A stretch of 64,000 bases of DNA from Octopus vulgaris (lineage: Eukaryota), in NCBI GenBank assembly GCA_951406725.2, contig OX597834.1:17918001-17982000 (forward strand), in the 5' to 3' direction. The first letter of the stretch is position 1. Each line of letters opens with the position of its first letter. The position numbers were made by a program, and so were the translations under genes. Positions 4,321 through 56,496 of this stretch are shown here, piece by piece. The notes beneath the pieces are model-generated. The model was not told the origin of the DNA, did not search any database, and saw only the letters and a list, made by a program, of their open reading frames with translations.

Positions 4321-4488
4321 CAGACATCTTTTTCCTTAGAATATATTGCAGCAATGGATGCAGTATATGAACCATTAACCATTATTCTGCAGGTGCCTTG
4401 TCAGTTGATCAATTTGGTCCACTGACACAACACCCTGCAGATGAACAGCAATATCAGATAAGGCGGAAGGCCAGATAAGGCATCCATT

Positions 4489-5092
4489 TCACCACCACCT
4501 TCACCATCACCACCACCACCATCATCATTACCATCACCATAATCACTACTACCATCATCGTCACCACCACAACCACCACCATCATCACCACCATCATTAC
4601 CATCACCATAATCACTACTACCATCATCGTCACCACCACAACCATCGGTTATCACCACAACCACCACCATCATTACCATCACCATAATCACTACTACCAT
4701 CATCGTCACCACCACAACCATCTGTTATCACCACAACCGCCACCATCATCACCACCATCATTACGATCACCATAATCACTACTACCATCATCGTCACCAC
4801 CACAACCATCGGTTATCACCACAACCACCACCATCATTACCATCACCATAATCACTACTACCATCATCGTCACCACCACAACCATCGGTTATCGCTACAA
4901 CCACCACCTTCACCACCACCATCACTGCCACCACCATCATTACCATCACCATTACGATCACCATAATCACTACTACCATCATCGTCACCACCACAATCAC
5001 TACCACAACCACCACCTTCACCACCACCATCACCATCACCATCATTGTTATCACTACAATCATCACTGCTACCATCACCGCCACCACCACCG
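4489..5092. repeat. (CAC/CAT)n compound minisatellite with higher-order units
   Basis: Repeating caccataatcactactaccatcatcgtcaccaccacaacc blocks. Confidence 0.95.
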
Positions 5093-19790: not shown

Positions 19791-20629
19791 GTTGTAATAA
19801 AGAGATGAAAAGTACTCAGAACCAGAAATAGGGTTTAAAATAAATTTTTGACTGATTGGATTAAATTTGTTTTTCCTTTTAGCTTTTCCTTTTGTTTCTC
19901 CTTCCCCACCTCCCCCACTTTTTCTCATTTCCTCTCAACCATTATATCCTATGACAGAAATCACACACACACACAAACACATTTTCATATTTATATATAT
20001 ATGCATGCATATATGTTTACGTACACACACACACCAGTAAGACAAAGTAATTGTCTCTGCTTTACTGTGGAAGCCAAAACTGGAGATTGTGCCTAATGTT
20101 GTATTCATATTTCCTAATTATTATTACATGTAGAATGTAGGCACAGAACCATGTGGTTGGCAAGCAACCAGATGGCTGTGGTAAGAAGCTTGCTTCCCAA
20201 CCACATGGTTTGGAGTTCGGTCCTACAGTGTGGCAGCTTGGGCAAGTGTCTTGTGAGTGGATTTGATAGCGAGAAAGTGAAAGAAGCCCATTGTATATAT
20301 ACATTACTCTTTTATTTGTTTCAGTCATTTGACTGTGGCCATGCTGGAGCACTGCCTTTAGTCTAGCAAATCGACCCCAGGACTTATTCTTTGTAAGCCT
20401 AGTATATATATGACAGGCTTCTTTCAGTTTCCGTCTACCAAATCCACTCACAAGGCTTTGGTTGGCCCGAGGCTATAGTAGAAGACACTTGCCCAAGGTG
20501 CGACACAGTGGGACTGAACCCGGAACCATGTGGTTCGTAAGCAAGCTACTTACCACAGTGCCACTCCTACGCCTATATATATATATATATATATAAATCA
20601 AAATAAGCAACAAGGATATCCAGAGGTAA

Positions 20630-20721
20630 TGCAGTACGATCGTTTCATGCAACTCCATTTAATTGAACAATGCAATCATTTCATCACATCAATTTAAAAT
20701 GTAGAGCAATCTTCAGCTGCA
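20630..20721 (-). ncRNA. Type I hammerhead ribozyme-like motif
   Basis: Minus strand: TGCAG-CTGAAGA-[long stem II hairpin]-GAAA-CGATCG-TA-CTGCA. Stem I is 5-6 bp and helix III is the palindrome ACGATCGT. The base of stem II is U-U rather than G-C. Confidence 0.68.
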
Positions 20722-20892
20722 CAAAGACATAGAATTTAATTAAATTAGGACACATTAGCATAATGTGATTTTAATCACCTTATTTTGAAATTGTATGGAT
20801 AATACCATACTAAATTCTGGTGCCTCGACTTAAGCACCATATTCATCTGAATCTAAATTTTTATATAATATATATATTATATAAAAATTTAG

Positions 20893-22278: not shown

Positions 22279-22880
22279 TAAGGTGGCGAGCTGGCAGAAC
22301 CGTTAGCACGTCGGGCGAAATGCAGAGCGGTATTTCGTCTGTCTTTACGTTGTGAGTTCAAATTCCGCCGAGGTCGACTTTGCCTTTCATTCTCTCAGGG
22401 TCGATAAATTAAGTACCAGTTACGCACTGGGGTTGATGTAATTGACTTAATCCATTTGCCTGTCCTTGTTTGTCCCCTCTATGCTTAGCCCCTTGTGGGG
22501 AGTAAAGAAATAGGTATTTCGTCTGTTTTAACGTTCTGAGTTCAAATTCAGCAGAGGTCGACTTTGCCTTTCATCCCTTCGGGGTTGGTAAATTAAGTAC
22601 CAGTTATGCACTGGGGTCGATGTAATTGACTTAATCCATTTGTCTGTCCTTGTTTGTCCCCTCTATGCTTAGCCCCTTGTGGGGAGTAAAGAAATAGGTA
22701 TTTCGTCTGTTTTAACGTTCTGAGTTCAAATTCAGCAGAGGTCAACTTTGCCTTTCATCCCTTCGGGGTTGGTAAATTAAGTACCAGTTATGCACTGGGG
22801 TCGATGTAATTGACTTAATCCGTTTGTCTGTCCTTGTTTGTCCCCTCTATGTTTAGCCCCCTGTGGGTAGTAAAGAAATA
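22279..22880 (+). mobile_element. SINE family B (MetaSINE-like core): head plus three 184-bp body units, 13-bp TSD
   Basis: Head ggcgagctggcagaa; core ggtcgactttgcctttcatcc..gtcgataaattaagtaccag; units start at 22330, 22514, 22698. aggaagggaatcc occurs at 22263-22275 and 22880-22892. Confidence 0.9.
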
Positions 22881-23264
22881 GGAAGGGAATCCAGCTGTCA
22901 AAAACTACTTTAAGCCCCATGCAATATTTATGATAGTTGAGTGTTTGTCCTTGCTATAGAAGTTCAAAAACTGGTATGATAGTGATGCACGATGCTTTGC
23001 TTTCACTATTTTCAGGTTTTCCTAGAAAGACAGGTTGTGTAAGTTAAACTGACAACAGTACTTCACAAGTGGACCTGCTGTTTACTTTTATTTTATATTA
23101 GTGAACAAGAGTATTATTAGTTTACAGGCCTCCAATGAACCAATCCTTGGTTTACTCACACATTGATGTCAATATGTTTACGTGACTCCGTATAGAACAG
23201 ATATTAGAAGAGGGTGGGTCAAAAAGCAATGGGTTTTTCTTACACTGTTGTTTATATTCTACGC

Positions 23265-29369: not shown

Positions 29370-29573
29370 CCGCGTGTGTATCGTTGGTGATTTTTTCCCT
29401 CTGTCTTCCTTTCCTTGGATCTTTCCTTTTCCTATGTTTCTGACGAAGAGCTCCGCTCGAAATGTTAAATCCTCCTCCTTTCTTTCCTTTCCTGAGCGTC
29501 CAATAACACTATACTTGTTCCACGTCCTCGCGTTGTTGTGTTTTCTCTTTGTATTTTTATGTTTGGATTAACC
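29370..29573 (+). mobile_element. Penelope-like terminal fragment carrying a minimal hammerhead
   Basis: Second copy at 58822-59025 (-). Contains CTGACGA-A-GAGCtccGCTC-GAAA and ends in (TA)n. Confidence 0.65.
29436..29470 (+). ncRNA. Minimal hammerhead ribozyme-like motif
   Basis: GTTT-CTGACGA-A-GAGC-TCC-GCTC-GAAA-TG-TT-AAAT. The consensus with the 58923 copy gives GAAA-CG-T(A/T). Confidence 0.55.
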
Positions 29574-30205: not shown

Positions 30206-30450
30206 TGTATTTGCATAGCGAGTGACTTGATCTGAGATCGTGTGCTGGAACGAAAACAATTACAGCGTGGAAAGTGTTTATAAGCCATTTAAGAAACACA
30301 AAACCATTAGTTTCACTTCAACATTGAAATTTAATTTGTCAAAATATTTTCGTCACGGTCTCAAAGCGACGAAAATATTTTGACAAATTAAATTTAAATG
30401 TTGAAGTGAATCTAATGGTTTTGTGTGTTTCTTAAATGGCTTCCATGCTG
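30206..30450. mobile_element. Fold-back insertion (about 70-bp arms, 30282-30442) with 13-bp target-site duplication
   Basis: catacacagatga at 30193-30205 and 30451-30463; arms aagccatttaagaaacac...ttttcgtc / gacgaaaa...gtgtttcttaaatggctt. Confidence 0.8.
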
Positions 30451-51850: not shown

Positions 51851-52293
51851 TAAGTATGTGTGTGTGTGTATTCAAATGAAAGGAAAATTTCAAAATATGT
51901 TGCCAGATTGAAATCCATACTGTAAAAGATAAAGACCAAGCTTCCACACCATGAAAAGGGAATAACTGATTAAATCTCAGATTATTTTCAACAACCACAG
52001 ATTTAATCCTTTCATGACCATATTTCTAATGAAATACTGCGTATTGTAAATAAGTCTGAAAATAATCAAAAATTTGGAGGAATTAGTATAAGAACTCTTT
52101 CCAAAACAAAGCTTTTATCTAGAACATAACTAATAAGGTTTTTAAATACAATTAGACAGTTTTAAATAATTCTCGTCTCATCAGCTTCAATCTTGTATCT
52201 GAGAATTTATTTTCTTCTTTGCTGAATGCTTCCTTTATGATGATGCTGTTGGTGACTCTCAGACCAGTTAATTGCATCGATGGTATTGACTGT

Positions 52294-53130
52294 AAAGGTG
52301 GCGAGCTGGCAGAAACGTTAGCACGCTGGGCGAAATGCGTAGCCGTATTTCGTCTGCCATTACGTTCTGGGTTCAAATTCCGCCGAGGTCGACTTTGCCT
52401 TTCGTCCTTTCGGGGTCAATAAATTAAGTACCAGTTACGCACTGAGGTCGATGTAATCAACTTAATCCGTTTGTTTGTCCTCTCTGTGTTTAGCCCCTTG
52501 TGGGTAGTAAAGAAATAGGTATTGACTGTAAAGGCGGCGAGCTGGCAGAAACGTTAGCACGCCAGGCGAAATACTTTGTGGTATTTCATCTGCCGCTACG
52601 CTCTCAGTTCAAATTCTGCCGAGGTCGACTTTGCCTTTCATCTTTTTGGGGTCGATAAATTAAGTACCAGTTACACTCTGGGGTCGATCTAATCGACTTA
52701 ATCCGTTTGTCTGTCCTTGTTTGTCCTCTCTGTGTTTAGCCCCTTGTGGGTAGTAAAGAAATAGGTATTTCGTCTGCCGCTATGTTCTGAGTTCAAATTC
52801 CTCCGAGGTCGACTTTGCCATTCATCTTTTCGGGTCGATAAATTAAGTACCAGTTACACTCTGGGGTCGATCTAATCGACTTAATCCGTTTGTCTGTCCT
52901 TGTTTGTCCTCTCTGTGTTTAGCCCCTTGTGGGTAGTAAAGAAATAGGTATTTCGTCTGCCGCTATGTTCTGAGTTCAAATTCCTCCGAGGTCGACTTTG
53001 CCATTCATCTTTTCGGGTCGATAAATTAAGTACCAGTTACACACTGGGGTCGATCTAATCGACTTAATCCGTTTGTCTGTCCTTGTTTGTCCTCGCTGTG
53101 TTTAGCCCCTTGTGGGTAGTAAAGAAATAG
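52294..53130 (+). mobile_element. Two family B SINEs (monomer plus trimer) at one site with a triplicated TSD
   Basis: ggtattgactgt at 52282, 52518 and 53130; body units start at 52581, 52765, 52948. Confidence 0.9.
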
Positions 53131-53602
53131 GTATTGACTGTGTCGTTATGTTGGTGGGGGACGAAGCTGGTTTTGTCGATAGGCAATTTTAAAATGAAAT
53201 TGTGTAGTCCTGTATTGTAGACCTTTGAATAGTCTCAAGCAAGTTGGTATTGAAAAGCTTAAAGAAAATGTGAAACTTATCTATAAATATTAGTCCAACA
53301 CAAAGAATGGCATTGTGTTGCATGTTTAGGCGAGGGAATTTCATTGTTCTTCATTGGAAAACTTGCACAGTTTGCAGTGTTTGCTTACATCAGGTCTTTA
53401 TGTGCTGAAGTTGAATTGCAACTTAAATTGTAGGCAGTGAATGAGGAGAAACTGCAGTGTGAGTGGAGTGGTGGGAGTAGTAGTGGGGGGGATGGGGCTG
53501 GGAGAAATGCTGTGATAGGATCAGTATATATATATGTGTGTGTGTGTGTGTATATGTATATGTGTGTGTATATGTATATATATGTGTGTGTGTGTGCATA
53601 TG

Positions 53603-53769: not shown

Positions 53770-53814
<45 letters not shown>

Positions 53815-53958
53815 GCAATAAAGAGTCAAGTTAATTTAAATGAATTTACTTGAATATGGTACCTAACTTAGATGCACCAAAAAAAAACTATACTGATTTA
53901 ACAATACAGTAATGTGGGGTGATTATAAGCGAGAATGAAGCAACAAGAATGGATAGGT

Positions 53959-54048
53959 TTTTAGTACAATCGTTTCATACAAGGACAGGTTTTATTAAAA
54001 GTTGCAAAATTACAGCATATAAACGTGTCCCGTACTCATCAGCTAAAA
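53959..54048 (-). ncRNA. Type I hammerhead ribozyme (left arm, minus strand)
   Basis: Mirror image of 54139-54229. Confidence 0.75.
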
Positions 54049-54138
54049 TACATGTGAGTTCTCTAGACATCTTAGTGGTTGAGGCTATACTCATGAGTAT
54101 AGCCTCAACCACTAAGATGTCTAGAGAACTCACATGTA

Positions 54139-54229
54139 TTTTAGCTGATGAGTACGGGACACGTTTATATGCTGTAATTTTTGCAACTTTTAACAAAACC
54201 TGTCCTTGTATGAAACGATTGTACTAAAA
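54139..54229 (+). ncRNA. Type I hammerhead ribozyme (right arm)
   Basis: TTTTAG-CTGATGA-GTACGGGACA..TGTCCTTGTAT-GAAA-CGATTG-TA-CTAAAA. 6-bp stem I, about 10-bp stem II base, short helix III, GUA triplet; predicted cleavage after 54223. Confidence 0.78.
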
Positions 54230-54309
54230 ACCTATCCATTCTTGTTGCTTCATTCTCGCGTATATATATATATATATATATTGCACACACACACACACAC
54301 AAAATCTAA

Positions 54310-54393
<84 letters not shown>

Positions 54394-55309
54394 CAAAATG
54401 AAGGATAAATCCGTTAAAGATTTTATCAGTGGCCAGTATCTAAAATAGGCGTATTAAGGTGAATTCACACATAGAGATTTTGGCATCTATTGGTGGCATT
54501 TCTTCAGTCTTTGGGTTTTGAGTTCAAATTCTGCTGAGGTCAACTTTACCTTTCATCCTTTCAGGGTTGATAAAATAAGTACCAGTCAAATACTGGGTTC
54601 TTTGTAATCAACTTACCCTATCCTTGAAATTTCTGGCCTTGTGCTAAAATATGAAACAACCATCACAAACACACACACACACATTCTATTCATATATATT
54701 ACATGCTCATTCAATTTCTCCGGCCCCATTTTCATATTCTGATCCTGTCATACATAATAATTTTTTTCTACTTTAGGCACAAGGCCTGAAATTTTAAGGG
54801 AGGGGGTTACTTGATTATACTGACCCCAGTGTTTGACTGGTACTCAGTTTATCAACCTCAAAAGGATGAAAGGCAAAGTTGACTTCAATGGAATTTGAAC
54901 TCAGAAAGCTGACATGCAAGAAATGTTGCTCAGCATTTTGTCAGGTGTGCTAATAATTCCAGCAACGCAGGAACAATACGAAATCTTTTAAGATTGCATC
55001 TATGATAATTAGTGAATGATGAATTAGACAAATTGGATTGGAAAGTTCTGTAGAGCTTGTACAGAAGGTTTGCCTCTTAGGAATAGGGAAGACCATCAGA
55101 AAGGTTTTGAGCACTTGATGACTTAATAAAATCATGTGGATATCTGAGGTTATAGGAAGGAACCTGCTACCTAAATAAATTCTTTCAGAAATAAGATCAA
55201 TCTTGATTGAAGAAGATTATAATATCAATACTAATAATAATAATGAGCCTATCGTATACAGTGCTCAAGTACAGTACAACTTATCAGAAAAAGATAATCA
55301 CTATTATTA

Positions 55310-55920
55310 CTATGGCCAGGTACCAACCTGGGTCGCAGCAACAAAGTCCACCTGCCACTCTTCTCAATCCATCATCACTGTCTCCAGGTCCTGGATATAG
55401 TCCAGGCCAGTGTCTGCAGTCAAGTTGTTCATGTAAATGTGACAACATTTTCCCCTTCTTACATCATCATGAAATGGGTTCCACATGGCTAATTTGGATG
55501 TTGCCAGTCCAGGATGGTGCACACACTGACCAGGTAGTCGCAGGAGTCTATGCTTGATCTACTCACTAACTTTTGGCAGGTCTCCATAAAGACTTTCATT
55601 TGTCATATATTGCTGCCATTTCACATTTAGGGCCATACGTAGCATCCACTTAACCCATTTGATAATTTCTTTGTCAGCATCCATGTTTCACTGCCATATA
55701 ACAGCACTGATTCGACAGTTGCAGTGAACAGCTTGATTTTGATTTGCCAAGGCAGTTTGGAGTTGCAGACCTTCTTTAGTTTGTAACAAGCTGTCCACGC
55801 TTGTGCCTTCCTGATCTTGATGCCTGCTTCCAAACTGTTCACCCAACCACTTAAGTACTTGAAGTCTTCAACAGCATTCAATGTGGGACCATTCAAAGCA
55901 AACAGTTCATGTATTCCATT
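55310..55920 (-). mobile_element. RTE-clade LINE 3' fragment (decayed reverse transcriptase C-terminus)
   Basis: VEDFKYLSGW...KIKLFTATVESVLLYGSETW followed by LRLPGQCVHHP, typical of the post-RT region of RTE LINEs. Confidence 0.85.
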
Positions 55921-56496
55921 TCCTTGACATTTGTGTGCAGTCCCACTTTAACAGCTGAGCAGCTGTTGTGGTTGATTTATTTCCTTAGACATCATCTGTG
56001 AAGTCCAAAAAAGCGCAAAACAAGAAAAAGAGAGCAGAAATAAGCAAAGTAAAGAAAGACAACACCAACAGCCAAAAGTACACGTACAGCACATGGGATA
56101 AAACAGAAAAGTGAAGAGTAGAAGAGTGAAATAGAGGAAAGGGTGGAGAGGCATTTCAGGAATAGTGTTGGAAAATTTCAGGAAGTATGGAAAATTTTGA
56201 TAGATACATTGCCCTGACAGCCAACAAGTGATATGTGTAGTTTATTTCATGCTTCAACAATTTTGTGTGTGAAAATATGCTTCTGAAAGTCACAGTTGGT
56301 AGAGATAATGAATTGAAGAGGAAAGCTGAAGATGTTGCTGGAAAAATGGTGGATAATCTTTATAGACTTCTACCAAGTCAGTTGCTAGATGTCGAAAATT
56401 TAGGACACCAAAGCCCAAAGAAACCAAACAATCAAGATATGATAACTGACAGAGAGTATTTGTTTGATTGCAAGTCACTGGGAAGCTTCCGATAGA

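Follow-up and report, generated by a model that had tools for sequence, protein, structure and literature searches.

Head-to-head insertion of a young Penelope-like retrotransposon as the origin of a hammerhead-bearing palindrome in Octopus vulgaris

Inverted, 5′-truncated copies and one-sided tails of 30-40 bp are described as standard features of Penelope-like elements (PLEs) (PMC8557442). Dual hammerheads, located on opposite strands and 100-700 bp apart, have been reported in PLEs (PMC4209133), and the hammerheads of these elements are described as weak or protein-assisted (PMC11167929, PMC4209133). Naiads carry "half-core" motifs 35-50 nt apart, and the long loops II of two plant PLE-X hammerheads provide a precedent for a long stem (both in PMC8557442). 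The same source defines the Hydra clade by its RWK, DKT, CxCx5C, CxxC and CxH motifs, while asparagine-rich inserts in the ORF have been described for rotifer Penelope elements (PMC3846280). With the PAc element in vitro, both target strands were cleaved and extended, and two reverse transcriptase (RT) start sites bracketed the tail (PMC11167929). The formation of tandem and inverted PLE structures, together with the bias for microsatellites, is named an open problem in section 15 of PMC8557442.

The window analysed here, a 64,000-nucleotide stretch of the Octopus vulgaris genome (contig OX597834.1, positions 17,918,001 to 17,982,000), contains a palindrome with a hammerhead motif on each strand. 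We conclude with high confidence that this palindrome is a short, 5′-truncated, head-to-head insertion of a young Penelope-like retrotransposon, one that bears Hydra-clade motifs, into a (TA)n microsatellite.

The palindrome and its parent element

The palindrome (53929-54259) is centred at 54093/54094 and has a spacer of 0; its arms of 165 and 166 nt add up to the 331 bp, with two differences between arms, that a first-pass annotation of the sequence had described. The arms pair without mismatch over 88 nt (54006-54181) and are interrupted further out by one T-run indel and one substitution. Among the short-spacer palindromes of the window this is the strongest, and an exact search found its 22-nt centre only once across the 2.8-Gb genome. 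What the initial description had missed is that the left arm carries a further 119-nt tail: the palindrome is the common part of an asymmetric 451-bp insertion (53810-54260; Table 1), both outer ends of which adjoin (TA)n. Relative to a natural full copy of the element (L037), positions 53810-54096 correspond to element positions 4362-4648 on the minus strand, and 54091-54264 to element positions 4362-4535 on the plus strand. In tandem copies of the element the 119-nt tail runs into the 5′ UTR and the ORF. An independent insertion (L049) is joined at the same TCATGA quasi-palindrome as the window insertion, with a 5-nt loop.

Table 1. Features of the head-to-head insertion and its target (window coordinates).
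Feature	Position	Strand	Remark
(TA)n target microsatellite, left	53771..53809	.	Nearly all family ends adjoin (TA)n
119-nt element tail, on left arm only	53810..53928	-	Outer end is site 2 (long-arm end)
Left palindrome arm, 5′-truncated 3′ UTR end of element	53929..54093	-	Alignment to element
Type I hammerhead motif, 59-nt stem II, predicted cut after 53965	53959..54048	-	
Head-to-head junction, 6-nt microhomology TCATGA common to both arms	54091..54096	.	Natural quasi-palindrome of element
Right palindrome arm; outer end is site 1 (short-arm end), 36 nt past predicted cut	54094..54259	+	
Type I hammerhead motif, 60-nt stem II, predicted cut after 54223	54139..54229	+	
Additional G separating site 1 from (TA)n, absent from element there	54260..54260	+	Family's commonest short-arm end
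(TA)n target microsatellite, right	54261..54281	.	

That the palindrome is an artefact of assembly or of a fold-back read is highly improbable. Contigs from four public runs were checked for the exact centre of the palindrome and none of those listed bridges it, which would be compatible with an artefact. Against this, the arms are not identical, they end at different, family-specific sites, and their flanks are unrelated; since a chimeric read would duplicate a flank, the unrelated flanks argue against such a read. The head-to-head architecture is moreover common to 36 of the 62 clusters into which the first 100 core matches listed were grouped (see below). In contigs of three other runs, the two arms meet in eight joints located away from this centre, which we read as head-to-head junctions of other insertions.

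The insertion is recent, as had been proposed, being 98-99% identical to hundreds of copies. Comparison of the right arm with the organism's own genome returned 1,343 first-look candidates, of which the best 40 were scored, all with 99-100% identity. A 19-nt hammerhead-core pattern gave 814 exact genome matches (411 + 403), and the control gave 0. In other copies the hammerhead-bearing end is preceded by a 1.6-kb 3′ UTR and, upstream of it, by an open frame of 970-981 codons (stop-to-stop). The earlier suggestion that the arms derive from the 3′ terminus of a PLE is borne out. The predicted protein contains RWK at 37, DKT at 124, YRDD, CxCx5C (CKCRIKSKC, 813), IYx12YIG, CxxC (CQLC, 910) and CxH (CVH, 940). 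A Pfam scan of the whole-length ORF detected no domain, and the domain matches obtained for RVT_1 (E 0.013) and GIY-YIG (E 0.004) were both under the cut-off; in the sister family represented by L129/L130, the GIY-YIG match passes it. The protein's atlas neighbours carry RVT_1/HTH_animal and GIY-YIG. A PDB sequence search with the ORF protein gave no match, and a single-sequence AlphaFold model of the C-terminal domain (pLDDT 30) was not used. Several sister loci encode related proteins, with up to 82% identity in pieces.

Several traits of EN+ Penelope-like elements were found in this family: RT and GIY-YIG in a single frame, partial tandems (L032/L033), an inverted 5′-truncated copy and a one-sided tail. 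Of the motifs of the Hydra clade, RWK, DKT in place of DKG, CxCx5C and CxxC/CxH near the C-terminal endonuclease are present, as is insertion into (TA)n. The family departs from that clade in the length of its unit (~4.7 kb, against <3 kb) and in its hammerhead, which is not short (stem II of 59-60 nt); both the short length and the canonical short hammerhead are typical traits in PMC8557442 rather than strict criteria. Judged by eye, the ORF protein resembles the Hydra alignment in the supplement to that paper. The motifs and the alignment suggest membership in the Hydra clade.

Two other classes of element were considered and rejected. A DNA transposon or MITE would have symmetrical terminal inverted repeats of fixed length; the arms of this family range from ~100 bp to >4 kb and the outer ends differ. 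A non-LTR retrozyme would form a head-to-tail non-coding array; these copies lie head-to-head and their parents carry an ORF.

Asparagine-rich stretches lie between the RT and endonuclease of the full copy (L037:5160-6150), with 27% N over residues 500-830. At L032/L033 (C2 37.617-37.628 Mb), a ~10.7-kb head-to-head insertion has arms that each exceed one element unit and cross the tandem junction; these are 99.5-99.9% alike and one of them retains the 981-codon frame. Other repeats in the window include an imperfect inverted repeat at ~30296-30426 (61-nt arms, 9-nt spacer) and two tandem arrays, at 22329-22882 and 52282-53135, made of 183-236 bp units of a dispersed repeat, presumably SINE-like, that has many copies in both orientations. 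A degraded coding-like stretch at ~55260-56000 gives the impression of a LINE fragment on the minus strand.

A type I hammerhead with a long stem II

Each arm contains a stem I (TTTTAG/CTAAAA), CUGAUGA, a stem II of 59-60 nt, GAAA, a helix III with the sequence ACGAUUGU, and GUA. The CUGANGA/GAAA/NUH core and the three helices of a type I hammerhead are thus present on each strand, in agreement with the first-pass annotation, with cleavage being predicted only. The Rfam model Hammerhead_1 (RF00163), comparison with which had been suggested as a check, does align to 54139-54229, but with a score of 18.4 bits (E 0.034) that falls below the gathering score of 34; an Rfam scan of 8 kb around the palindrome did not have Hammerhead_1 among the matches listed. 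The low score is probably due to the 60-nt stem II. When constrained to the hammerhead fold, the sequence gave -10.3 kcal/mol, as compared to -12.3 kcal/mol for the minimum free energy structure. Folding z-scores for a single arm were unremarkable (+0.5 to -1), so that the case for the structure rests on covariation rather than on stability. Helix III of the window family includes a G-U pair, and the dimer helix predicted for it is weaker (-5.8 vs -10.0 kcal/mol).

A pattern in which the core is combined with a perfectly palindromic helix III and a spacer of 45-75 nt yielded 3,938 matches in the genome, from several sister families, and one in the control. In 37 distinct motifs, the first two pairs of stem I are kept in 36 and 37 cases, with four Watson-Crick pair types. 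Sixteen motifs were taken from the 37 so as to span families and were analysed for covariation, the search pattern having fixed the core and helix III and left stems I and II free. In this sample 83.9% of cells were paired, compared to 63.5% in shuffled sets (0/500) and to 29-46% in slid controls, and two-sided changes were found at 9 of the 12 helix I/II pairs. Helices I and II thus covary among genomic copies, as the proposal of a conserved hammerhead had implied. The hammerhead likely serves the RNA of the autonomous element, probably with the help of dimerisation or a protein, and is a passenger in the window insertion. Hammerheads with such long stems suggest that standard descriptors undercount ribozymes in genomes of this kind.

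Two further motifs were noticed in the window. A sister-family type I hammerhead with a long stem II lies at 20625-20726 (minus strand); its stem I is different but paired, its helix III is a perfect palindrome, and the copy ends ~35 nt past the cut site at (TA)n, resembling site 1. At ~29430-29480 (plus strand), another dispersed repeat contains a short hammerhead-like motif (CUGACGA, short stem II, GAAA).

The geometry of the palindrome is such that, whichever the direction of transcription, the ribozyme is made after its own antisense copy, as the first-pass annotation had pointed out. For a transcript through the palindrome, the hairpin is predicted at -286 kcal/mol, against about -10 kcal/mol for the hammerhead fold. 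Of the two fates that had been envisaged for this RNA, collapse into double-stranded RNA agrees with these values; self-cleavage does not stand as an equal alternative. The prediction for a host transcript across the site is that it closes into a hairpin of 165 bp without cleaving. Among 24 runs on record, none was listed as an RNA run that contains the sequence, a result with no bearing on expression. Rfam miRNA matches over the centre were discarded, being under gathering scores and expected of any perfect hairpin. The annotation had further raised the idea of a self-silenced, strand-independent ribozyme cassette. The geometry is as described, the transcript would form long double-stranded RNA, and small RNAs are reported from rotifer Penelope copies (PMC3846280). 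Yet the hairpin is favoured over the ribozyme fold by more than 270 kcal/mol, the junction occurs at no other place in the genome, copies differ freely in arm length and the insertion is recent. Head-to-head dual hammerheads are, besides, the ordinary insertion form of the family and are published for PLEs. A functional cassette of this type, kept by the host or by the element, strikes us as most implausible. The window locus itself is a passenger, ordinary for its family, and its head-to-head form likely records the element's way of integrating and not a host function.

End types, arm lengths and shared variants

The 62 clusters formed by the first 100 listed core matches consisted of 35 in the "-+" arrangement, one "--++", 26 single motifs and none in the "+-" arrangement. 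To the question of whether copies are usually palindromic, the answer is that head-to-head pairs are the usual form and that tail-to-tail pairs were not seen in this sample; some of the singles (L038, L045, L076) do in fact have a partner, one that does not match the 19-mer exactly. A set of 40 two-arm insertions was hand-picked from several hundred, by combining the best BLAST matches with pairs from contigs C1 and C2; 14 loci with a single arm and three of complex structure (L067, L082, L032/L033) were set aside. In every one of the 40, one arm stops at site 1, ~36 nt past the predicted cut, and its partner stops at site 2, which lies another 119 nt out. The three complex loci also show one end of each type. 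Among sister-family pairs, judged by eye, 11 of 15 follow this two-end rule; L099, L131 and L132 do not, and L134 is ambiguous.

The arms of an insertion tend to be equal in length, their starts lying within 15 nt of each other in 16 of the 40 cases against 2.1 expected (permutation, 0 of 20,000). The share of equal arms is 40% in the older as well as the younger subgroup (4/10 and 12/30). In the 24 unequal insertions, the arm with the tail is longer in 14 and the short (tail-less) arm in 10, the excess of the latter reaching 3.7 kb; in near-equal cases that have a loop, the loop is on the tail-less arm in 7 of 10. In one insertion (L007), all that is left of the second arm is a 29-nt tail tip; insertions with a single arm also occur, some with one end type and some with the other.

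Several observations concern the ends themselves. The extra G before (TA)n (e.g. at 54260) accounts for 30 ends in the tally, and most tail ends also finish in G; it may originate from slippage or from a preference for this nucleotide when synthesis begins. Conservation of the tail extends to sister families (53810-53964, minus strand; loci L110-L139), with an AC-rich motif just past site 1 and three predicted hairpins; covariation in it is weak (5/21 pairs, covariation term +0.45). A 5.2-kb spacerless palindrome of the same family, with arms 97.5% alike, is found at L031:1793-6958.

Comparison of the insertions leads us to lean towards a mechanism in which cDNA synthesis is primed from two sites, at both ends of a cut (TA)n, and the two cDNAs are joined by microhomology or snap-back. 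The GIY-YIG domain would cut both strands of the microsatellite; one target end would prime at site 2, thereby including the tail, and the other at site 1, 119 nt apart. A single template molecule, or a single source locus, would have given rise to both arms. Some DNA-templated copying is probable, by snap-back of one cDNA followed by annealing to its partner. In the window insertion, both cDNAs would have stopped at the TCATGA quasi-palindrome, leaving no spacer. That each end represents a separate RT start is suggested by the two fixed outer ends, by the fact that either arm can be the longer one, by the tail tip in L007 and by the single-arm insertions of both types. It agrees with the pair of RT start sites and the cleavage of both strands observed in vitro with PAc, an element of the Poseidon clade (PMC11167929).

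Sequence variants shared between partner arms point to a coupling of the two cDNAs. Partner arms diverge by 0.10%, compared to 1.0% between insertions, and at 15 polymorphic sites a single discordant partner pair was observed where ~84 would be expected under independence (the sites are linked). Over 12,158 overlapping bases, 20 private variants shared by both arms were counted, against 19 unshared ones. Of three private shared variants tested genome-wide, two were confined to both arms of one insertion and the third had 7 matches. L093 and L079 have many shared private variants and 0 unshared; the arms of L031 differ at 15 sites and share 12 variants. Variants confined to both arms cannot be accounted for by two separate RT runs; they require copying at the DNA level, conversion at a later time, or a source locus that the assembly does not contain. 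Microhomology averages 2.4 nt, against 0.69 nt at random, at the 14 filler-free measurable junctions of the 40; it was counted by exact extension, which halts at SNPs relative to the reference copy, and 26 of the 40 junctions, including that of the window, are classed as "filler". Templated-looking fillers are present at junctions, and L041 shows a 42-nt snap-back. Together with the equal arm lengths, these features suggested that the cDNAs are coupled, each serving in part as template for the other. The distributions of shared-private and unshared variants along the arms showed no significant polarity (P 0.17), so that polarity lends no support to the snap-back step, and an A>G excess among shared private variants, which would hint at an edited template, was absent (4/20).

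Second in our order of preference comes pure fold-back with central deletion, a possible but doubtful scheme. A single cDNA begun at site 2, or alternatively an antisense RNA, would fold back at a micro-palindrome and copy itself outward, the copy being resolved at site 1, and unequal arms would result from central deletions, whether immediate or later. Fold-back accounts for variants confined to both arms of one insertion and for the 40% of insertions with equal arms; centres lie at hairpin-capable sites (L001, L049, L086, L090), the L041 junction is of the snap-back type, and self-priming has already been proposed for head-to-head PLE palindromes (PMC3846280). A copy cannot exceed its template, however, and in 10 of the 24 unequal insertions the tail-less arm is the longer one; likewise, an extra deletion would be needed each time the tail-less arm holds the loop. 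Moreover, the share of equal arms is no lower with subgroup age, the large L031 palindrome persists, and insertions consisting of the short arm only exist. The fold-back of one terminus put forward in the first-pass annotation is therefore a poor fit, all the more as the arms end at different fixed sites.

A third scheme, which we regard as unlikely, has two cDNAs from unrelated RNAs joined head-to-head, with gene conversion or mismatch repair of the hairpin homogenising the arms afterwards. It fits the two fixed ends, the greater length of either arm and the shared private variants without unshared ones in L093 and L079. It leaves the 40% of equal arm lengths unexplained, and sharing is equally common over multi-kb spacers (11 private shared variants, in L079, L080 and L084) and in spacerless palindromes (9). 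Two-site priming, while preferred, also has observations against it, namely the 15 differences between the L031 arms, the three of 15 sister pairs that depart from the two-end rule, and the variants confined to one insertion.

Relation to described elements

The head-to-head, dual-hammerhead architecture of PLEs is already published (PMC4209133, PMC8557442, PMC3846280). In a search of largely open-access papers, no description of the window family was found, nor of animal PLEs with a hammerhead class whose stem II is ~60 nt long, nor counts of end types or shared variants. New here are the strict end rule (40/40), the variants shared by partner arms, the excess of equal arms, and the hammerhead with a ~60-nt stem II and its covariation. 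Hundreds of near-identical insertions with strict ends and intact frames make the choice between two primers and fold-back testable by counting and in vitro. A joint reading, which we offer tentatively and consider somewhat doubtful as a whole, would be that the main integration mode of the lineage consists of one ribonucleoprotein using both ends of a (TA)n break to copy the same RNA molecule from two programmed sites, with a snap-back finish; that the hammerheads constitute an undescribed long-stem-II class (~4,700 genome motifs, below the Rfam threshold where tested); and that near-perfect hairpins of 0.3-5 kb are a source of double-stranded RNA for editing or silencing. If this were true, the step by which inverted Penelope insertions arise, so far unsolved, would be on record in hundreds of young copies.

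The closest relatives are in the Hydra clade (Craig et al. 2021, PMC8557442). Hydra-1_Obim and Penelope-13_HM are alike in their motifs, C-terminal GIY-YIG, (TA)n targets and 3′ type I hammerhead, and Penelope-13_HM is also described with a 5′-truncated inverted copy and a hammerhead on each strand. The window family differs in its ~4.7-kb unit (the published elements are generally <3 kb), asparagine-rich inserts and 1.6-kb 3′ UTR, in a tail of 119 nt as opposed to 30-40, and in a stem II of ~60 nt, where the Hydra entries in File S2 have ~9-25 nt. Hydra-1_Obim belongs to a separate family, whose hammerhead and protein are not those of the window family (PMC8557442).

The minimal type I hammerheads of PLEs (PMC4209133) have the same core and, with a short palindromic helix III, a predicted dependence on dimers; their helix II is of 4-8 bp. 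Non-LTR retrozymes (bioRxiv 10.64898/2026.07.22.740005) are described as head-to-tail tandem arrays without an ORF, whereas the window family is head-to-head and has autonomous parents. In the Poseidon element PAc of Anolis (Frangieh et al. 2024, PMC11167929), the target is likewise AT-rich and the hammerhead lies just upstream of the start sites; PAc differs in its clade, in having a short tail and in a hammerhead that overlaps with the beginning of the ORF. Penelope of the rotifer Adineta vaga (Arkhipova et al. 2013, PMC3846280) resembles the window family in its head-to-head inverted pLTRs, the palindromes at their junctions, the tail on one end and the N-rich inserts of the ORF. The Adineta copies described are few and mostly old, whereas those of the window family are in the hundreds, near-identical and countable. 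The Adineta paper invokes self-priming on an antisense template, while the counts obtained with the window family favour two primed ends.
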